The notes beneath the pieces are model-generated. The model worked only from the letters and a program-made list of their open reading frames with translations, had not been told where the DNA came from and did not search any database. From an uncultured virus (IMG/VR IMGVR_UViG_3300037189_006336) (Duplodnaviria; Heunggongvirae; Uroviricota; Caudoviricetes): a DNA stretch of 64,000 nt. Position 1 is the stretch's first letter. Each line of letters opens with the position of its first letter. Of the stretch, positions 1 to 57,444 are shown one piece after another. Position numbers and translations under genes: made by a program. The stretch lies in the IMG/VR virus record IMGVR_UViG_3300037189_006336, positions 1 to 64,000 of that record. One strand, given 5' to 3'.

Positions 1-2040
1 CTTACTTCTGTAGGTATTTCTAATCTTACAGCTACAGGAACACCTAATTCTACTACTTATTTAAGAGGAGATAATACTTGGGCTGCTATAAGTGGAGTAT
101 TATCTGGATTAACATCTGGACAAGTAACTTTTGCTAACAGTTCTTCTTCTATAATAGGAGATACTGGATTAACATGGAATAATACAAACAAAACTTTAAC
201 TGTAACTACTAACCAGGGACTTAATGGTTTAAATGTCACTGCTCTAACTACTGCAACAACTTCTACTAATAGTTTAGTTTCAATATCATCGACTATAACA
301 AGTGGTGCTGGTAGTAATGTTTTATTTGTAAATAGACAAGGTGGTGTAGGTGGACCAAGTACTACTGCTGACTTCCCTGTTAGATGTATTTCAATATTTA
401 AAGCAGGTACGCAAGAATTGTGTTTTCACCAGACTAATGGTATGGGGTTACAGGTTACAACAGATAACTACACAGGTTTAAATTCTCTATATTTAAACTC
501 ATTTGGTGGAGATGTATATGCAGGTAGTAGTTCTAATTCTTCTGGTAGTACGTTATTTGTGTATGGAAAAAACTCAGTGTATAGTTCTAACTCTTTCCGA
601 GTATTAAATAACTCAAATATTCAATTGTTTAATATTGATAGTGGAGGAAATATATCTATAGGAGGTAATACAACTTCTAGTTTATTTCAAATATTTCAAC
701 GTACTACAGGAGTAGGTACAGTATCAACTAGTGGCACAACAGTAACAGGAACAAATACACAATTTACTAATACATTTAAAATAGGTGATACTATAACAAT
801 AGCATCTATAGCTTATACAATATCAGCAATAGCTTCTGATACTAGTATGACTACTAATACATTAGCTACACTATCTAATCAAACTTACACTCTTACAGGT
901 GGTGCTAGATTTAATGTATATGGTAATGGTAATGTATCTTGGGGAACTCCAGGAACAGGAGGTACTAGTTCTACAATGTGGTATGATGCTAGATATGGTG
1001 CTTTAAATATAGGTAGTTCTACAAGTCAGTCTAGTTATCTGCTAAATGTAAATGGTGCTAGTTATTTTGTAGGAACTACTTTATTTGGTTCTTCTACTAA
1101 TAATACAGGTGCAAAAGTTACAATTAATGGTGGTTCTACTTCTAGTGGTTTTCCATCTACAAGTGGATCAACTTTTACTAATGGTATATTAAGATTGACA
1201 GATAATCAATATGCAAACGCTTTAGATTTTGGATTTGGCACATCTACAAATAATCCACCGTGGCTTCAAGCGAGATATAATAATGCTAGTACCACTGTCC
1301 CATTAATCTTACAACCGAATGGTGGAGGGGTATTAATAGGTGGTCAAACAACACCTGGCTCAACAATAACTTTAACAGTAGCTTCGAGAGAGGTAGGTCA
1401 AAGCACTGCTGATGTAATATTAGCTATAGATCAAACTAATGCAATTTATAATAGTTTACTAAACTTTAGTTATAGAGGAACTGCCTATGGGAGAATACAG
1501 TTTAATAATACTAGTAACGATTTTACTATTGGCTCATTAAGTGGTGCAACAGGTGGCAAAACATATTTATCAAATAACGGTACTAATATATTAAGTATTT
1601 ACTCTGGGGGTAAAGTTGGTATCCAAAATGGAGGTACATTTACAGATGATACAGTCAATATATTACAAGTAACAGGTAGAACTAAACTAAATGGTCAAGT
1701 ATCTTATGGTGGTAGTACACCTACAATAGCTGCTGGAACTGGTGCTGGTACTTCTCCTACTGCCTCTATAGTAGGAACTAATAATGGTGGAGTAATTACT
1801 GTTACTACAGGTACTCTACCCTCTTCATCTGCTACACTAGTTACTGTAACTTACACAGGAGCATTTGCTACAGGTAGTCAAATAATACTCTACCCTACTA
1901 ATTCTGCTACAGCTTTATTATCTGGAGTATCCATGGTATTTACAACAGGAACAACAACAACATTTACAATTACAACTGGTACAACAGCTTTAACAGCAGC
2001 TACAACTTATAGTTGGGCTTATGTTGTCACAGGATATTAA
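1..2040 (+). CDS. Tail fibre / receptor-binding-type protein, 5'-truncated by the window edge
   Basis: Frame 1 is open from base 1 (LTSVGISNLTATGTPNSTTYLRGDNTWA...) into the 418..2040 ORF. It carries the (F/Y)LRGDxTW tail-fibre repeat and is Gly/Ser/Thr-rich with beta-type repeats (GNISIG, GKVGI). Confidence 0.7.
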   Translation, partial: LTSVGISNLTATGTPNSTTYLRGDNTWAAISGVLSGLTSGQVTFANSSSSIIGDTGLTWNNTNKTLTVTTNQGLNGLNVTALTTATTSTNSLVSISSTITSGAGSNVLFVNRQGGVGGPSTTADFPVRCISIFKAGTQELCFHQTNGMGLQVTTDNYTGLNSLYLNSFGGDVYAGSSSNSSGSTLFVYGKNSVYSSNSFRVLNNSNIQLFNIDSGGNISIGGNTTSSLFQIFQRTTGVGTVSTSGTTVTGTNTQFTNTFKIGDTITIASIAYTISAIASDTSMTTNTLATLSNQTYTLTGGARFNVYGNGNVSWGTPGTGGTSSTMWYDARYGALNIGSSTSQSSYLLNVNGASYFVGTTLFGSSTNNTGAKVTINGGSTSSGFPSTSGSTFTNGILRLTDNQYANALDFGFGTSTNNPPWLQARYNNASTTVPLILQPNGGGVLIGGQTTPGSTITLTVASREVGQSTADVILAIDQTNAIYNSLLNFSYRGTAYGRIQFNNTSNDFTIGSLSGATGGKTYLSNNGTNILSIYSGGKVGIQNGGTFTDDTVNILQVTGRTKLNGQVSYGGSTPTIAAGTGAGTSPTASIVGTNNGGVITVTTGTLPSSSATLVTVTYTGAFATGSQIILYPTNSATALLSGVSMVFTTGTTTTFTITTGTTALTAATTYSWAYVVTGY

Positions 2041-44426: not shown

Positions 44427-47400
44427 ATGAGCTGTAAGTACACATACAAAGGAATGGAGTTTGAAAAAGATGAGTTAGTTAAATATCTTATAGATAATCC
44501 ATCAGAAAAGTTTGATAATAGTGGAAAGCAAAGTGACTTTTACTACTCTATTAAAACTGGAGCCAGTTTAAAAGATTTGAAAAAAGCCGGTCTTAATGTA
44601 ACGGTTGCTACAGTAACAATGCTTAATCAAAGAATAAGTGATGCTAAGAATATGGCTCAAGCTATTGAACACTCAGCTTATTCAGAAGAAGAAAAACTTA
44701 GGTTAAAAGCTTATTATAAAAACATTATTCAAGAAACAACTGGAGCTTTACGTGATATATCAACATCTACTGGGGATAAACAACTTAATCTTATTCTTAA
44801 TCAAGCTACTATAGATCATAAACTTGTTGAAACTATGTATAAGTCGTCAGACTCTATAAGTTTTAATGAGTTAAAGTTTGCTAAAGAAATGGTAGAAAGC
44901 TGGTCTAATTTTAAATCTGTTCTTGGTATAGAAGATGTTGATGAGCTTCCGGATGAAACAAGAGAAAAAGTTAGAACTATTCTTCATAATTTTTCTGATC
45001 TATCTGATAAAACAAGAAGAATTGCTATAGAGCTTATAAGAAAAGCTTTTGATGGTAAAATAACTGAAACAGAGATTACAAGAATTGTAGATACATCATT
45101 AGCTACTGAATGGATCAGAGATCTTACTACTACAGGTGTTCCTATTGCAAACGTATTAAGTAGATTATTAGAAGAAACTAATATTAAAATTAATAAGGAA
45201 AGAAATGATATACATCGTGAAATAGATAAGGTAGCTGATAAGCTAAAAACACATCCAGAAATAATAAAGAATGGGTTTGATATATTCTTTAAAATGAAAA
45301 AGAATAAGGATAACACTGAAACAAGAACTAGAGTTTCTAGATATTCTCAAAAGTTTTGGGATTCTAAAAGAGCTAACTCAACAACATTAGATATTCAATT
45401 AAAAGAAGTGGGTGATAACAAAGAAAAAGTTAAAGCAGCTTGGGCTCGATACCACGCTTGGAATGAAGCTAACACTATATTGTTTAATTCACTACCTTTT
45501 ATAAATTCTGAAGATTATAAAGACTCTGATAGAGAACGTGAAATAGAAAATCTTAAAAATTTAGGATTTAAAGAAAACGAAATTGATAATATTATTAGCG
45601 AAAGTGCTTTAAGATATGAAAGATATTTAAAAGCTAAAGATCAATATCAAGCTAATATGATAGCTAAGATAGCTTATCATCCAGAATTAATAGCTGAAGG
45701 TAAAACAGAAGCTGATTGGGTTAAAGAACAAGTAGAGGATTATGATAATTTATACAATCCATTAAAATATGTTAATCAAAAGATATATGGAGCTCTAATT
45801 GTTACAGCAAAAGGTGGTGCTGAAAATTGTTATCTTGTTCCTGTAAAAAATATAAAAGGTCAGGATATGGAGTATTACGATAAACAGTTTGACACTATAG
45901 TTAATGATCCAGTATTATATGAATTTTATTCTTGGTTTGATAAAACGATTAAAGAAAATTTATCTTGGTATCCTAAAGAAGAAATAGAAGGACTTGGTTC
46001 AAACTATCTTCCAATTATAGCTGAAAAAGCTGCTAAAGAATATGGACTTAGTAATATTAAAGACTCAGTTAAAGGATTAGGAGATTGGTTTTTAAATGCA
46101 TTTACCGCGTATGACTATGAACAAAGAGTTGAAACCGGTGGTATGACTATGAAAGAACGTAGAAACTTTAACGCTACATTTTTACATCAAGATATAGGAA
46201 CTGAGAAAGCTTCTAAAGATATGATATTAATGGCTAGAGCCTTTGCTGATATGTCTTTGATATATAAACATAAGAATACAATTAAAGCTCAAGTTGATAT
46301 TATTAATGACGTAATACAAGAAACTAAAGGTTCTTATAAATACAATAAGAAAACAGGTGAATATATAGCTAAAGCTGAGGATGCTAAACATATAAAAGGA
46401 TTGGCGGACTTTACTGTAAAAAAAGGATTTTATGGTATTAGTGATAAAGATATGGCTGATGAAGCGCTTAGTGGTGATACTTTGTTTTATGATTGGAAAG
46501 AACTAGTTAGTGGTGGATTATATAAATCTGAAAAAGCTAAAAAAGCAAAAGCTATTGAAGATAAAATTAAAAAAGTTAATGAACAGTTAGATAAAGAAAA
46601 TATTACAGAAAAAGATGAAGAAGTCTTAACAGATGCCTTATATCAATTAAAAAAAGAACATACGAATTTAGGTGGTAGAAAGTTTTCATTATCACAAATG
46701 ATTGATAGTAGTCTTACTTTAACAAGAGCTACATCATTAACTTTTAACGTAGCTTCTGCAGTTAGAAACTTACTTGTTGGTAAACTAAATAACTGGGAAC
46801 ACGCAAAAGGTGGTAGAGATTATACTACATCTGATTTAGCTATTGCTAATAGATTAATAGCTTCTTCAATAGGTAAATACTGGTCTGGTGGAAAATATGA
46901 GACAAGAATGACACATATATTATTTAAAGTGTTATCAGATTCAGGACTATTAGAAGGAGAAGATCATGGTTATGTAAAATCTTTAGTTGATAATAGAAGT
47001 AATGTAGATAAGTTTAAAGCTATGTTACCTAAAGGGTATACACTTCTTCAATCTGGTGACTATCATTTTAAATCTGAGCTTATGATGGCTGGTTTTAATT
47101 TTACTAAAGTTGAAACTAGCAAGGGACAAAAGTCTTTACATGAAGTATTAGATGAAGATGGTAAATATGATGAAAAAGAATTTGGTCCTTGGGATGCTGA
47201 AAAAAATGGTGGAAAAACATTTGATGAACTGTATACTGATACTATTCTTAAATATAGACAACTAGCTAAAAAACTACATGGAGCTGTTGGTAAAGATATA
47301 TATCTTAAAGCTAAAGGAAACTCTATAGGTAGATTGTTTATGGTGTTTAAATCATGGTTACCTGAAACAATTGGTGTAAGGTTTGATCCTAAACATATTG

Positions 47401-47936
47401 ATGGTATAATGAATAGAGAAGAAGAAGGTTTTTATAGAACATTTGTTGGTATTTGTAGAGAAAAAGGATTAGGTACATTTAAACTTATGTTAGATGCTGT
47501 TCTTAATAGAGATGTAGATATAAGTGATGAAATGAAACTTGCTAACTTTAAAAAAGCTGTCGCTGAAATACAAGTTATTATAACATTAATGTTAGCGTAT
47601 ACAATATTATCAGCTATATCACCTACAGATAAAAAAGATAAAAAAATGTATAATCTTTTTGTTTTAAGACAATTAAAAGATTTACAACGTGATATGACTT
47701 ATTATATAGATATTAGATCTGCAAATGATTTACAAAAAAATGTTGTACCAATACTGATCACTTATCAAAATATGGGAAAAGCTTTTAACGCTTTTGGACA
47801 ACATATACTTGGTGTCGAAAAACCAGATGGTAAACTTAAATATGATAATGAACGTACAGCACTTGCTATAACTAAAGTACTTCCAGTATTAAGTAATGTA
47901 AACAGAGTTATATATTATACTAAAGAGATACAATAA
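44427..47936 (+). CDS. Large helical putative cargo protein, last gene of the ejection cluster
   Basis: 1169 aa; C-terminal hydrophobic helix IQVIITLMLAYTILSAI; follows the vRNAP gene. Confidence 0.5.
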   Translation: MSCKYTYKGMEFEKDELVKYLIDNPSEKFDNSGKQSDFYYSIKTGASLKDLKKAGLNVTVATVTMLNQRISDAKNMAQAIEHSAYSEEEKLRLKAYYKNIIQETTGALRDISTSTGDKQLNLILNQATIDHKLVETMYKSSDSISFNELKFAKEMVESWSNFKSVLGIEDVDELPDETREKVRTILHNFSDLSDKTRRIAIELIRKAFDGKITETEITRIVDTSLATEWIRDLTTTGVPIANVLSRLLEETNIKINKERNDIHREIDKVADKLKTHPEIIKNGFDIFFKMKKNKDNTETRTRVSRYSQKFWDSKRANSTTLDIQLKEVGDNKEKVKAAWARYHAWNEANTILFNSLPFINSEDYKDSDREREIENLKNLGFKENEIDNIISESALRYERYLKAKDQYQANMIAKIAYHPELIAEGKTEADWVKEQVEDYDNLYNPLKYVNQKIYGALIVTAKGGAENCYLVPVKNIKGQDMEYYDKQFDTIVNDPVLYEFYSWFDKTIKENLSWYPKEEIEGLGSNYLPIIAEKAAKEYGLSNIKDSVKGLGDWFLNAFTAYDYEQRVETGGMTMKERRNFNATFLHQDIGTEKASKDMILMARAFADMSLIYKHKNTIKAQVDIINDVIQETKGSYKYNKKTGEYIAKAEDAKHIKGLADFTVKKGFYGISDKDMADEALSGDTLFYDWKELVSGGLYKSEKAKKAKAIEDKIKKVNEQLDKENITEKDEEVLTDALYQLKKEHTNLGGRKFSLSQMIDSSLTLTRATSLTFNVASAVRNLLVGKLNNWEHAKGGRDYTTSDLAIANRLIASSIGKYWSGGKYETRMTHILFKVLSDSGLLEGEDHGYVKSLVDNRSNVDKFKAMLPKGYTLLQSGDYHFKSELMMAGFNFTKVETSKGQKSLHEVLDEDGKYDEKEFGPWDAEKNGGKTFDELYTDTILKYRQLAKKLHGAVGKDIYLKAKGNSIGRLFMVFKSWLPETIGVRFDPKHIDGIMNREEEGFYRTFVGICREKGLGTFKLMLDAVLNRDVDISDEMKLANFKKAVAEIQVIITLMLAYTILSAISPTDKKDKKMYNLFVLRQLKDLQRDMTYYIDIRSANDLQKNVVPILITYQNMGKAFNAFGQHILGVEKPDGKLKYDNERTALAITKVLPVLSNVNRVIYYTKEIQ

Positions 47937-47965
47937 AAAGAGGGAGTTATTCTCCCTCTTTTTTG
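47936..47965. terminator. Bidirectional terminator at the convergence of the structural and replication modules
   Basis: AAAAGAGGGAG-TTATT-CTCCCTCTTTT with A- and T-runs on both sides, between convergent genes. Confidence 0.85.
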
Positions 47966-48145
47966 TTACTTTTTTTTGTAATAAGTAAAGTAAATAATAA
48001 TAATTCCTATACCAATTCCTATCTCATTATAGATAGACTCTTCTCTGGTATCATCACATATTGCTTCACCTTGTTCATACAAAATACCAAAAACAGTTTT
48101 TCTTTTTGAAAAAAAAGAAAACTTAACATGTAACATACTATTCAT
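47966..48145 (-). CDS. Small 59-aa protein with hydrophobic C-terminus (absent from the ORF track)
   Basis: Manual translation MNSMLHVKFSFFSKRKTVFGILYEQGEAICDDTREESIYNEIGIGIGIIIIYFTYYKKK; fills the gap between the 48152 ORF and the terminator. Confidence 0.6.
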   Translation of the reverse strand: MNSMLHVKFSFFSKRKTVFGILYEQGEAICDDTREESIYNEIGIGIGIIIIYFTYYKKK

Positions 48146-48151
48146 AACTGT

Positions 48152-49243
48152 CTAATTTTTAATTTCAAAAGGATGCTTCATAATAAAACAATCCTGTGGT
48201 TGATCCGTATGTTTTTTAAAGCCGTTAATATAGCTTTGTATATTTGTAGATCCAACTGGATTATGTGAATGACAACATGCTTTCCAAGATAATAAAGTTT
48301 TATACTCATTTTCTAAAATACTGATATCAGGAATAAAAAATGGATGTCTAAATTTATAATCTATATTTGGTTGTAAAATAGATGGTTTTGTAATAGGTAA
48401 ATCATTAGCATTTTTCCATATAAAACCTTTACTTGTTTTATATAAATTTCTTGCACAAGCTCTTATTGATGAAGCACTAAATCCTAGTTGTCTAGCAGCT
48501 TCTTCACTACTACCATAAACGTCAATTAAGTTATTATTAATATCATATTGAGCTATTGGTATACTAATAGACGTATTTTCAGAAACTCTGCTTCTTTTTT
48601 TTGGTCTTATATTATTATTTATAGCATGTTCATTATTTTCTTTAGATGTACACCATTCTAAATTACTCCAATGATTGTTCCATCTATTCCCATCTATATG
48701 ATTTATTTGTGATTTATTATCAATATTAACAATAAACGATTCAGCAACAAGTCTATGAATCTTTTTTCTACTTTTATTACCATTACCATCATATAATGTT
48801 ACCATTAAACCAGTAACTGATTTATCAGGTTTAAGAAAAGCATTTGTCTTTCCATTTTTTTTATTATATCCTTTATGAATAATTCTTCCAAAATTAGATA
48901 CTTTATAAATAGATTCATAACCAGGTATGTCTTTCCATACTTCTTCTGTATATAATAATCTTTTCTGACAATGTTCTACTAACCAACGCGCGCAATCTAG
49001 TCCGGTTTTTTCTTTATACTGTCCGTAGTTAGGATGTTGAAATCCTTCTACCATAAGTTGTTTGTAATAGTCATCCATATGTTCCTGGGCCAGGTCATGA
49101 TCAAAAGAGATCAGATCTGGTATACCGTTTTTGGATATGTATTCTACAAACTCATCATAGTTTCTTACAACATTCCATGGATGATATCCGGGAATAGTTA
49201 CAGTTGGGATACGCGTATCATCTAGATATAATGCTTTCTTCAT
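48152..49243 (-). CDS. Cyclic-phosphate-processing receiver-domain protein interrupted in frame by a NUMOD4-HNH-NUMOD1 endonuclease
   Basis: N-part LYLDDTR...VRNYDEF...ISFDHDL...KTGLDCARWL; insert EVWKDIPGYE...HRLVA...INHIDGNRWNNHWSNLEW...QYD...GFIWK; C-part HSHNPVGSTNI. Confidence 0.8.
   Translation of the reverse strand: MKKALYLDDTRIPTVTIPGYHPWNVVRNYDEFVEYISKNGIPDLISFDHDLAQEHMDDYYKQLMVEGFQHPNYGQYKEKTGLDCARWLVEHCQKRLLYTEEVWKDIPGYESIYKVSNFGRIIHKGYNKKNGKTNAFLKPDKSVTGLMVTLYDGNGNKSRKKIHRLVAESFIVNIDNKSQINHIDGNRWNNHWSNLEWCTSKENNEHAINNNIRPKKRSRVSENTSISIPIAQYDINNNLIDVYGSSEEAARQLGFSASSIRACARNLYKTSKGFIWKNANDLPITKPSILQPNIDYKFRHPFFIPDISILENEYKTLLSWKACCHSHNPVGSTNIQSYINGFKKHTDQPQDCFIMKHPFEIKN
48300..48960 (-). 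mobile_element. Homing endonuclease insert (NUMOD4-HNH-NUMOD1); boundaries approximate
   Basis: Typical homing-endonuclease domain order lying between the two halves of the receiver domain. Confidence 0.7.
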
Positions 49244-49244
49244 T

Positions 49245-49718
49245 TTACTTAATATTTAATAGTTTACATATATATCTAAATTCATTAATAGAAGAACAGA
49301 ATCCATTATAAACAATATCTAAAGAATATTTACCAGGTGGATTTGTTTTTATTTTTGAAGCATCTAGTATATAATCCCGTAACTCAATAGTTAATCTAGT
49401 ACTTAAAATATTATATCTACAATCATAAGTATAGTTACCAATGTCTTTTTTAAATAATTTTACACCATCACCATAAATTATATCTGCTATACAGATCCAT
49501 CCTTCAGCTTCTAACTGTTCTTTAGTGAGATATGGAGTTCTTATTCTTCCTTCTTCTAAATCTTCTACAAGATTTTCTAAATCAAGTTCTTCAATAGTAA
49601 TACTTTCCCAAGGATATTCATCTTTTTTTTCAAAAGCATATTCATCACAATCTTTCCATTCACATTCATATCCAATATGTAAATCTGATATGTCTGGAGT
49701 ATAATATTTATTTTCCAT
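49245..49718 (-). CDS. Hypothetical protein
   Basis: 157-aa ORF tightly packed in the operon. Confidence 0.55.
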   Translation of the reverse strand: MENKYYTPDISDLHIGYECEWKDCDEYAFEKKDEYPWESITIEELDLENLVEDLEEGRIRTPYLTKEQLEAEGWICIADIIYGDGVKLFKKDIGNYTYDCRYNILSTRLTIELRDYILDASKIKTNPPGKYSLDIVYNGFCSSINEFRYICKLLNIK

Positions 49719-49959
49719 CTTTAAATTCGTTTTCTAAATACTCAATTAGATACTTAGCGTATCCTGTTAATATCTCTTTATCTTGAAAAATAAAGCTGTT
49801 GAGTTTAGACTCAACAGCTTTATTATATTCTTCTTTTAGTAGTTTAAAACTACTTTTATTAATAGACAGACTTTCCTGATTCACTACTATAATTTTGATG
49901 ATATTTTGATTCTTGTACTCCAGTTTGACCGTGGTATTTACTACCTGCTTTTTGATCAT
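49708..49959 (-). CDS. Small hypothetical protein (start uncertain)
   Basis: C-terminal YNKAV...F.FQDKEILTGYAKYLIEYL looks protein-like; the 5' part overlaps dcd by 101 nt. Confidence 0.45.
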   Translation of the reverse strand: MIKKQVVNTTVKLEYKNQNIIKIIVVNQESLSINKSSFKLLKEEYNKAVESKLNSFIFQDKEILTGYAKYLIEYLENEFKDGK

Positions 49960-50515
49960 AGGATTCTTCTATTTCTCCCTCCACTCTAGCAAACTCTAAC
50001 TGACATATTTTCATGTTAGGATATACTAATATAGGACGTGTAGCAACAAGTTCTAACACTAAGCTTCCTTCGAATCCTGGATCTATAAAACCAGCAGTTA
50101 TATGTATAAACAATCCAAGTCTACCTAAAGAAGATTTACCTTCAACCTTAGCTCTTATATTACCTTTTACACCGATACGTTCGTTTACAGCATAAAGATA
50201 AACATCTCCTGGCATAAGAACACATCCATAATCTGGAATAGTAAATTCTTCTACTTCATTAGGTTTGCGTGGATCCAATGGTTCAGTGTAAACATACATA
50301 CCATGACTATCTATAAAATATAGTTCTTCTTTATCTAATATATATTGAGGAACTTGATCTTTAAATACTTTTTTTACAGGCGTTTTATATATCTTAAAAC
50401 TAGGCGCCAGCGTAAGATCAACACTAACTGGATTCAAATACTTTTCTTCAAAAGGAGCTATAATAACTTTACCTTTTAATAACTCATCTTTAATTACTTT
50501 GTCTGATAATATCAT
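49859..50515 (-). CDS. dcd: dCTP deaminase (dUTPase-fold family)
   Basis: MILSD, NPVSVDLTL, EGKSSLGRLGL.IH.TAGFIDPGFEG.LVLEL, ICQL, SKYHGQ. Confidence 0.9.
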   Translation of the reverse strand: MILSDKVIKDELLKGKVIIAPFEEKYLNPVSVDLTLAPSFKIYKTPVKKVFKDQVPQYILDKEELYFIDSHGMYVYTEPLDPRKPNEVEEFTIPDYGCVLMPGDVYLYAVNERIGVKGNIRAKVEGKSSLGRLGLFIHITAGFIDPGFEGSLVLELVATRPILVYPNMKICQLEFARVEGEIEESYDQKAGSKYHGQTGVQESKYHQNYSSESGKSVY

Positions 50516-56872: not shown

Positions 56873-57061
56873 TTATAATTTGTTAGATTCAGCTTTTTTC
56901 CATAAGCCTTTTTCTTCTAGAAAAATACGAATTCTATTTCCTGTTCTAAAATCTGTAGTAAAAGCTTCTGTAAGTTCTAGAAATCTATACACCTCGCAGA
57001 GTTCTTCTTTCACTTTACCTATATCATCTTCTGATAACATACCATCTAAGAATTCACTCAT
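56873..57061 (-). CDS. Small hypothetical protein
   Basis: 62 aa; ATGA coupling to the HNH gene. Confidence 0.55.
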   Translation of the reverse strand: MSEFLDGMLSEDDIGKVKEELCEVYRFLELTEAFTTDFRTGNRIRIFLEEKGLWKKAESNKL

Positions 57062-57444
57062 TTCTTTCTATCTTTTTGTGTTTTTTTGTCATGACAATTT
57101 ATACATAGTACCTGTAGCCCTTCAACCTCTACAAATAATCTTCCTACAAACCCTTCTAGATCAGCACCACAGTTAAGAGCTCCGGCTGGTATAATGTGAT
57201 CAATATTAATATCTTTCTCCATAAACCACTCTTTACAAATGTTACATTGGTATTCATACTTTTGTCTTTTGTTAACTCCTTTATAAATACGTCTTGCTTC
57301 TAGTTTAACCTGTGTTACAGGTGGCCACCATCTACTTTTTTGTCTAAGAGCGCTTCTGATGAAAGTCCAGTACACAGCTTCACTCATTGTACCACCAGCT
57401 CTTGTTTTAGCAACTCTAGATTTCACTACTTTCTTTGCTTTCAT
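57058..57444 (-). CDS. HNH endonuclease with Zn-binding CxxC pairs
   Basis: YQCNICKEWF, IDHIIP, LQVLCINCHDKKT. Confidence 0.85.
   Translation of the reverse strand: MKAKKVVKSRVAKTRAGGTMSEAVYWTFIRSALRQKSRWWPPVTQVKLEARRIYKGVNKRQKYEYQCNICKEWFMEKDINIDHIIPAGALNCGADLEGFVGRLFVEVEGLQVLCINCHDKKTQKDRKK

Follow-up and report, generated by a model that had tools for sequence, protein, structure and literature searches.

A chimeric open reading frame at the cREC locus

The stretch of DNA analysed here, called the window throughout, comprises 64,000 nucleotides (nt) of an uncultured virus assigned to the Caudoviricetes (positions 1 to 64,000 of IMG/VR record IMGVR_UViG_3300037189_006336). On its minus strand, at 48152..49243, lies an open reading frame (ORF) without internal stops in which the gene for a small receiver-domain enzyme of the cREC family is interrupted, in frame, by an I-HmuI-like homing endonuclease. 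Its parts and the repeat at its junctions are as follows.

48152..49243, minus strand: whole chimeric ORF, 363 amino acids plus stop (cREC N-terminal part, endonuclease, cREC C-terminal part).
48962..49243, minus strand: cREC N-terminal part, residues 1-94, with LDD, SFDHDL and EKTGLDCARWL, ending in CQK (Pfam cREC_REC; 90% identity to P0001).
48302..48961, minus strand: inserted I-HmuI-like homing endonuclease, residues 95-314, 220 codons (junctions from alignment to insert-free homologues).
48872..48943, minus strand: NUMOD4, residues 101-124 (Pfam PF07463, E 1e-8).
48632..48763, minus strand: HNH catalytic motif, residues 161-204 (INHIDGN...NLEW...KEN; Pfam PF13392, HNH_3, E 7.6e-11).
48416..48562, minus strand: NUMOD1 / I-HmuI_NUMOD-like helix-turn-helix DNA-binding part, residues 228-276 (PF07453 and PF22083).
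48308..48391, minus strand: predicted disordered return linker with the DY..R..FFIP motif, residues 285-312 (predicted local distance difference test score, pLDDT, <50).
48155..48301, minus strand: cREC C-terminal part, residues 315-363 (KTLLSWKACC-HSHNPVGSTNIQS...; from alignment to insert-free homologues).
48952..48964, minus strand: 5' junction copy of an imperfect 13-nt direct repeat, AAAAGATTATTAT (codons K94 R95 L96 L97).
48289..48301, minus strand: 3' junction copy of the repeat, AAAACTTTATTAT (codons K315 T316 L317 L318).

The cREC fold is split after residue 94 and resumes at residue 315. Pfam cREC_REC (PF20274) matches residues 5-93 at profile positions 3-61 of 88 (E 5e-17; 62.8 bits, cut-off 27), and the last 80 amino acids alone give a weak match to profile positions 67-87 (E 0.19), so that one portion of the profile precedes and the other follows the 220 inserted residues and the domain is not contiguous. 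PHROGs assigns residues 1-95 to phrog_1479, a family of unknown function. In the alignment of the 363-residue protein with 11 insert-free homologues, the N-terminal part extends to ...DCARWLVEHCQK and the C-terminal part restarts at KTLLSWKACC. The columns H325 to G331 and N334 to S337 (HSHNPVG..NIQS) are invariant over the 12 sequences, as are D8, D9, S46 to A52 and E78 to A85; all four cREC motifs (LDD, SFDHDL, EKTGxDCA, HSxNPxG) are present in the window protein. A previous interpretation of the letters alone (hereafter the sequence-only reading) had taken the downstream HSxNPVG segment for the receiver C-terminus, which these columns bear out, and had placed the breaks at about 48960 and about 48271 with about 220 codons of insert. 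These estimates proved right, the host sequence ending with K94 at 48962-48964, the HSHNPVG motif beginning at 48271 and the insert measuring 220 codons. No host residue has been lost: 11 residues lie between CQ and HSHNP in insert-free genes (e.g. CQKMKVSLKACCV in L036), and the host residues in this interval of the window protein, K plus KTLLSWKACC, are 11 too.

Insert-free homologues are abundant. A search with residues 1-98 (E≤0.001) found 518 insert-free proteins of 53-172 amino acids among 521 candidates, and PF20274 was present in 120 of 120 homologues among the matches listed, most of them 141-156 amino acids long. P0001 (146 amino acids) is 88% identical to the window host overall. 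cRec domains have been defined as predicted phage enzymes that process cyclic ADP-ribose or 2',3'-cyclic phosphates (PMC7824862), and an endonuclease insertion within the domain is not among the passages in which that paper describes stand-alone and fused cRec proteins. Measured against those passages, the window host gene is a typical member, with Pfam cREC_REC and the conserved acidic and HSxNP motifs.

The same arrangement was found in IMG/VR contig L001 (121,793 base pairs (bp); 100% identical to the window over 9,089 nt), as a ~98% variant in L002, an independent 124,635-bp genome with terminal repeats, and in insert-bearing contigs of 31,627 nt and 42,593 nt from the freshwater metagenome runs X2 and X3 (6 differences over 48164-49198). 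Its recurrence in L002 and in the X2 and X3 contigs rules out an assembly artefact. The G+C content is 0.36 in the cREC N-terminal part (48950-49249), 0.25-0.27 in the insert (48300-48950) and ~0.28-0.30 in the surroundings; the compositional outlier is the host exon, not the insert.

The insert is an endonuclease without start and stop codons

The sequence-only reading of the insert as a stop-free NUMOD4-HNH-NUMOD1 protein is confirmed by the Pfam families found and by their order: PF07463, PF13392 and PF07453 score above their cut-offs, with NUMOD1 at residues 228-264 (E 1.3e-6), and PF22083 (I-HmuI_NUMOD-like, residues 242-276, E 4.4e-5) scores below its own (23.4 vs 27 bits). PHROGs assigns the insert to phrog_59 (HNH endonuclease, E 5e-45), and in the PDB it matches the sequence of I-HmuI (1u3e, E 1e-12), with conservation of the His and Asn of the HNH motif, which we take to be catalytic as in I-HmuI. 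The Asp that precedes them in the I-HmuI motif is Asn in the insert and likewise in free-standing relatives.

Homology to endonucleases covers insert residues 6-213. The free-standing protein P0276 (213 amino acids) starts with MDEIWK where the insert has TEEVWK (MDEIWKPIPNYEG vs TEEVWKDIPGYES), has DLPVTKPSL in its tail where the window has DLPITKPSI, and ends in ...IYK-stop where the insert ends in ...NEYK. Since P0276 matches end to end, the insert amounts to a whole endonuclease minus Met and stop. No in-frame ATG, GTG or TTG occurs between M64 and M155 or near the 3' junction. The insert has neither a start at its 5' end nor a stop at its 3' end, and thus lacks the separate ORF of I-HmuI-like endonucleases. 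As there is no start of their own, the nuclease and the 49 C-terminal cREC residues can be reached only via the cREC ATG at 49243, which lies one base past the stop of the upstream ORF, and from this layout the gene is probably translated as one chimeric protein.

Search for splicing or removal devices

Rfam, run at E≤10 over 47400-50000 on both strands, returned 12 weak matches and no group I or group II intron family; the 12 comprise a terminator-like hairpin (~47884-47995) and chance matches to microRNA or snoRNA families. Neither Pfam (E≤1) nor NCBIfam (E≤10) yielded a Hint or intein family; the sole NCBIfam row was a sub-threshold endonuclease family (TIGR01453, 21.4 bits vs 56). Inteins begin with Cys, Ser or Thr and end in His-Asn followed by Cys, Ser or Thr, and no register within the 4-codon ambiguity of the junctions CQK|RLLY and ENEY|KTLL gives such residues. 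There is also no room for a non-coding ribozyme core, because endonuclease homology of the P0276 type fills the whole insert and the frame runs on into the 3' exon. The sequence-only reading had asserted both that Hint blocks were missing and that a group I core would not fit, and on both counts these searches agree with it. It had further named an intron match, a Hint match and a non-homologous C-terminal segment as observations that would speak against it; none of the three was made.

Two explanations had been left side by side in that reading: a tolerated insertion into a surface loop, which fits all tests made, and an unrecognised route of removal, which gained no support. In the latter, a reduced or novel self-splicing RNA, a protein excision not based on Hint, or a skipping between TTA-TTA repeats (by ribosomal bypass or by transcriptional or replicative slippage) would restore cREC. 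The junctions do offer something to build on, as the copies of the imperfect 13-nt repeat begin exactly at K94 and K315, 663 nt apart, and the pattern AAAANNTTATTAT has 3 matches in the window vs 0.91 expected, 2 of the 3 being the junction copies (a post hoc count). A join at the repeat would shorten the interval from CQ to HSHNP to 10 residues, vs 11 in insert-free genes, and the RNA of the insert folds slightly better than its shuffles. However, the junction repeat is absent from the 5 families listed by a repeat search, and this AT-rich stretch contains other chance imperfect repeats that are about as good. The residues at the junctions (K/R...Y/K) are unlike intein chemistry, no model of an intron or intein was matched, and the insert is entirely endonuclease coding sequence. 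Excision at the RNA level needs no open frame, yet every chimera found is in frame and stop-free, and a bypass would have to cross 663 nt with no stop after the first copy, whereas known bypasses cover ~50 nt and have such a stop. We therefore regard removal by any of these routes as very improbable. A ribozyme proposed from RNA folding was also considered and dropped, a z of -1.72 over 20 shuffles being too weak to argue from.

Insert-free alleles and mosaic flanks

A 990-nt contig from run X4 carries an insert-free allele: it is identical to the window over 48164-48271 (108 of 108 bases), shows 20 differences over 48974-49298, and replaces the 702 nt at 48272-48973 by 45 different letters. 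Close relatives (X4, P0001, L002) thus differ in the presence or absence of the insert at one site. In a DNA sample of 80 viral loci found via host motifs, the gene was interrupted in 3 (L001, L002, L055), in frame and stop-free in every case.

The flanks of the insert are mosaic. The window and L002 show 3 differences over codons 16-344, and divergence is strong in codons 1-15, in the upstream spacer and from codon 345 on; L002, otherwise 98.7% identical, is without the 157-amino-acid ORF at 49245-49718, and its downstream DNA is unmatched in the window (on the 47937-48151 side). As L002 differs on both sides, the chimeric gene lies between two homology breakpoints. Compared with the X4 allele, the 10 codons adjoining the insert differ (KTLLSWKACC vs KGLLLKTCSV in P0001), and the next 108 nt are identical. 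Such mosaicism would be the expected trace of co-conversion of donor flanks during homing, and ordinary hot-spot recombination could account for it too. The junction repeat, if real, looks like a short target duplication (K-x-L-L), which suggests that the original insertion may have been an illegitimate event rather than classical homing; it would also offer a substrate for precise deletion.

A second insertion site and a sister family

The same kind of chimera exists at another position of the domain. We call the position in the window site B; site A is the loop that flanks helix alpha3 on its other side, between SFDHDLxDI and EKTGxDCAKWL. Among 18 long proteins with a cREC N-terminal part, P0130, P0133, P0134 and P0137 (318-324 amino acids) carry a NUMOD4-HNH-NUMOD-like module at site A, as judged from alignment and Pfam. 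When P0133 is compared with the insert-free gene in L076 (a 270,629-bp contig), 62 of 64 and 54 of 56 flanking residues are identical and 198 residues replace 16 residues of the loop. PF20274 and PF13392 occur together in 64 of the best 120 matches to P0137, which gives at least 64 clusters at 46-100% identity to P0137, some of them on contigs of 100-121 kilobases. By crude motif matching, the order DHD, HNH, EKTG was found in 44 of 65 sequences and the site-B order in none, the other 21 having failed a regular expression. In L055 an in-frame Met is kept just before the nuclease.

For an alignment of full-length chimeras, 59 of the 65 sequences were used, leaving out P0178, P0335, P0342, P0345 and P0346 (<300 amino acids) and P0347 (no HNH_3). 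On the host side D8, D9, R11, G273 and G304 are invariant, and F54 to L58 (FDHDL), T272, S299 and N301 are conserved at ≥90%; on the nuclease side N142, H143, N164 and H167 are invariant. The conservation of both motif sets in these 59 sequences indicates that both active sites have been kept, while fused, over considerable divergence.

The nuclease domains closest to that of the window are these embedded copies. The best single-domain phmmer matches were P0137 (169.9 bits), P0178 (160.1) and P0210 (147.1), vs 143.4 bits for the best free-standing protein, P0226. Only in embedded copies does the alignment continue through the tail (to about query position 212); the window's tail motif DY..R..FFIP recurs in P0137, P0178 and P0210, and FFIP is part of the consensus of the 59 chimeras. 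In a quick tree of the 78 best-scoring endonuclease domains (≥70 bits, covering query positions ≤25 to ≥175), the site-A clade received a value of 98 in the Shimodaira-Hasegawa-like approximate likelihood-ratio test, with the free-standing P0276 inside it. From these similarities we infer that the site-B element may derive from an element of the site-A type that switched loops.

Thirty of the 150 best representatives, in which the nuclease is internal or C-terminal in a longer protein, were scanned for embedding elsewhere. Of these, 29 are tandem multi-endonuclease proteins or are without a host domain, and P0210 alone is host-embedded, the host again being cREC; within these 30, embedding did not show itself as a general habit of the nuclease clade. 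Many of the best relatives (P0139-P0181 and others) are very long, reaching 1,328 amino acids and 13 matched stretches, with tandem NUMOD4-HNH units, and P0160 also has an EsV-1-7 cysteine-rich motif; such proteins could reflect tandem genes that are read through, a different genetic code or an origin in large viruses. In isolated phages, megablast gave one 91-nt match, and tblastn matches were confined to the endonuclease part.

A rival reading is that the module is no longer selfish, and now works as a nucleic-acid-binding or nuclease domain of cREC, for instance in phage competition or anti-defence. A domesticated fusion of this kind would account for at least 64 clusters that keep the chimera with both motif sets conserved and for cREC-embedded copies being the nearest nuclease relatives, and it agrees with the lack of a free-standing paralogue, as no second copy of the endonuclease (E≤0.001) was found in either of the two near-complete genomes (estimated to be 98% and 100% complete). 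We nevertheless consider it quite unlikely, because the insert is patchily present, with near-identical insert-free alleles in two independent pairs; because a few dozen chimeras stand against 518 insert-free homologues; because one module occupies two different loops; and because the free-standing P0276 nests within the site-A clade of the quick tree.

Predicted structures of the chimeras

AlphaFold models were built for the window protein, from an alignment of 62 sequences, and for P0137, from the 59 chimeras only; the latter is for this reason the more independent of the two. The window model has a pLDDT of 84.9 and a predicted template modelling score (pTM) of 0.54, with values <50 only at residues 285-312, and the P0137 model has a pLDDT of 89.1 and a pTM of 0.62. 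I-HmuI (1u3e_M) matched residues 101-282 of the window model with Z 15.7 and a root-mean-square deviation (rmsd) of 9.1 (171 of 174 aligned), and residues 64-241 of the P0137 model with Z 14.6 (169 aligned). Spo0A (1dz3_A), the best receiver domain, matched the window model over 1..358 (Z 9.5, rmsd 2.5, 96 aligned) and the P0137 model over 1..313 (Z 9.1, 92 aligned). Nearly all remaining rows of both searches were response-regulator receiver domains; Z values of 8-9 are near the stated background of the tool, and the receiver matches are consistent and cover most of the domain. The two cREC halves are accordingly predicted to come together in a single receiver fold from which the nuclease protrudes, with the insertion junctions of the window protein in the alpha3-beta4 loop. 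Structure prediction had been proposed in the sequence-only reading as a check of whether the split receiver refolds, and in the models of both insertion types it does.

These models bear on the question of whether the host enzyme is still alive. It could be that cREC is dead in this phage, that the endonuclease is active and merely borrows its start codon, and that the C-terminal segment is open only because the insertion is recent. The 3' exon, identical at 108 of 108 bases to an insert-free allele, would have had little time to decay; the cREC gene is small and accessory; only the window's cluster and L002 are known to have an insert at site B; and the chimera P0210 shows eroded cREC motifs, which may reflect decay of the host enzyme after invasion. 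(P0210, of 380 amino acids, also has an extra N-terminal segment of ~60 amino acids.) However, the window protein keeps every family-invariant cREC residue, and both predicted models rebuild the receiver fold. At site A, moreover, the host motifs are invariant or conserved at ≥90% in 59 chimeras with 46-87% identity to P0137, and this conservation implies that long-term selection on the host part of a chimera does occur. On balance, a dead host enzyme appears unlikely.

Other features of the locus and of its relatives

Insert-free cREC genes often share a neighbourhood: over the 80 loci, a dNMP-kinase homologue was present at 39, a convergent gene of 1169 amino acids at 22 and a dCTP deaminase at 15 (Pfam names). 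In the window, a GC-rich hairpin with flanking A and T runs (AAAAAGAGGGAG...CTCCCTCTTTTT, ~47884-47995) separates cREC from the convergent 1169-amino-acid gene. Probably a bidirectional terminator, this hairpin explains the weak Rfam matches to small-RNA families.

In three related viral contigs (L021:1391-2191, L033:151-858 and L077:2378-3130), an intact cREC gene is immediately preceded by a free-standing GIY-YIG endonuclease ORF, and in L033 an MKKALYLDD remnant (95-121) lies ahead of the GIY-YIG ORF, as if the first cREC codons had been duplicated. The cREC locus thus seems to attract several kinds of homing endonuclease. Other architectures include fusions of cREC to PF17653 in P0122-P0125 (200-211 amino acids) and the protein P0347 (265 amino acids), for which PF28549, PF20274, PF00293 and PF22083 are listed. 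Elsewhere in the window, a 128-amino-acid ORF at 57058-57444 on the minus strand, which adjoins a Toprim-like gene, has a sub-threshold match to HNH_5 (24.6 vs 27.5 bits) and may be another small nuclease.

A proposed model of splicing-free homing

Taken together, these results are best explained by splicing-free homing with translation of the gene as one chimeric protein, a reading to which we assign a probability of about 0.65. According to this model, an endonuclease gene of the I-HmuI type (NUMOD4-HNH-NUMOD1) would have lost its own start and stop codons and would persist as an in-frame insertion in the alpha3-beta4 loop of a phage cREC gene. Transcription and translation from the cREC start would yield a single polypeptide of 363 amino acids, in which the receiver halves would pack together and leave the nuclease outside, tethered by a short helical extension on its N-side and by a disordered linker of ~28 residues on its C-side. 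Splicing would not be needed, because the host enzyme is proposed to tolerate the extra domain. In a mixed infection, the nuclease domain would cut or nick the insert-free cREC alleles of related phages, and recombinational repair would copy the insert and short flanking tracts into them. Of this picture, the data show the anatomy of the gene, the lack of detectable intein or intron features, insert-free alleles, the mosaic flanks, the conservation of both motif sets at site A and the predicted folds, whereas we infer translation as a single protein, retained cREC activity, the activity and target of the nuclease, and homing itself.

Several observations weigh against this model. The receiver part of the window model leans on insert-free sequences, and the quick tree does not place the window nuclease firmly within the site-A clade. 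The site-A family was found by protein search, a method that favours intact ORFs, and one of its members, P0210, combines an intact HNH with degenerate cREC motifs (SFSDC for SFDHD, HTMSE for HSxNP). The identity of the 3' exon with an insert-free allele means that its intactness could reflect recent insertion rather than selection. Divergent introns can escape Rfam, the insert with its flanks is slightly more stable as folded RNA than shuffled sequences (z -1.72, 20 shuffles), and the imperfect 13-nt direct repeat flanking the insert is not predicted by classical homing.

A more far-reaching scenario, which we regard as a long shot, is that a lineage of I-HmuI-like nucleases has specialised as a permanent unspliced domain of cREC and has moved between the loops flanking alpha3, with the cyclic-phosphate or nucleotide site gating DNA cutting. 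The chimera would then be a signal-controlled weapon in conflicts between phages or between phage and host.

Homing endonuclease genes are usually said to persist in self-splicing introns, in inteins or between genes. Splicing-free homing would add a further survival strategy, in which the element does without start and stop codons of its own and survives as an additional folded domain, inserted where a host enzyme has a permissive loop. What makes cREC unusually instructive is that the host domain is tiny, related nucleases use two of its loops, empty alleles with near-identical flanks exist and a large, diverged family keeps both active sites. It offers a small, tractable system in which the activity of an enzyme despite an unspliced insert, the activity of a fused nuclease and a change of insertion site can be addressed. 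For annotation, such genes are easily labelled "fusion" or "HNH endonuclease"; for protein engineering, they point to natural insertion-permissive sites in the receiver fold.

Comparison with known systems

The nuclease itself is akin, in domain order and fold, to I-HmuI, one of the HNH endonucleases of group I introns in the DNA polymerase genes of SPO1-like phages. I-HmuI is a separate ORF inside a self-splicing group I intron, whereas the window has no intron signal and its nuclease is fused to host sequence on both sides. HNH-containing inteins resemble the window case in that an in-frame endonuclease is translated with the host protein, but they have Hint blocks and defined junction residues; as neither was found in the window insert, self-excision is not expected. 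The free-standing homing endonuclease mobE in nrdA of phage Aeh1 splits the gene with retention of host function. Genes of the mobE type likewise sit within a host coding region without intron or intein, but they have their own start and stop and leave two host polypeptides, whereas the window has a single ORF throughout. In bypassing of the T4 gene 60 type, the take-off codon matches the landing codon, a stop follows take-off and the gap spans tens of nucleotides; the window has matching TTA-TTA codons, but no stop and a 663-nt gap.

The closest published case is that of the 'hidden HNH' insertions ShiLan and Pacc40, which lie in DNA methylase genes of actinobacteriophages (Arsenault, Gosselin & Gogarten 2025, PMC11855218). 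In the passages devoted to it, the ShiLan domain is described as an in-phase, stop-free, non-splicing insertion in a mycobacteriophage methylase, with the HNH encoded in another frame. On that description the two cases are alike in that a non-essential phage enzyme gene is invaded, the host frame stays open, no intein or intron is detectable, the distribution among close relatives is disjunct, which suggests homing, and the insert is predicted as an extra excursion of the host protein (PMC11855218). They are unlike in that, by the same account, the HNH of ShiLan has its own GTG start and TAA stop in the other frame and the host-frame read-through is a low-confidence loop (PMC11855218), whereas in the window the endonuclease is in the host frame, forms a well-folded predicted domain and has no start or stop of its own, so that only synthesis within the host protein can produce it. 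Further differences are the host gene (cREC) and the type of nuclease (I-HmuI-like, with NUMOD4 and NUMOD1). The paper also notes, in the same methylase, a single in-frame LAGLIDADG for which no splicing domain could be detected (PMC11855218), which, as far as this mention goes, is in principle nearer to the window case than ShiLan.

A full-text search, in which subscription journals are thinly covered, found no publication in which a host enzyme contains a complete I-HmuI-type endonuclease in frame, and none on any insertion into cREC. This kind of insertion has itself been recognised recently and is barely characterised; what is new here is the host gene, the use of two insertion sites in a domain of ~145 amino acids, the occurrence of empty alleles in nature and a sister family that numbers at least 64 clusters.

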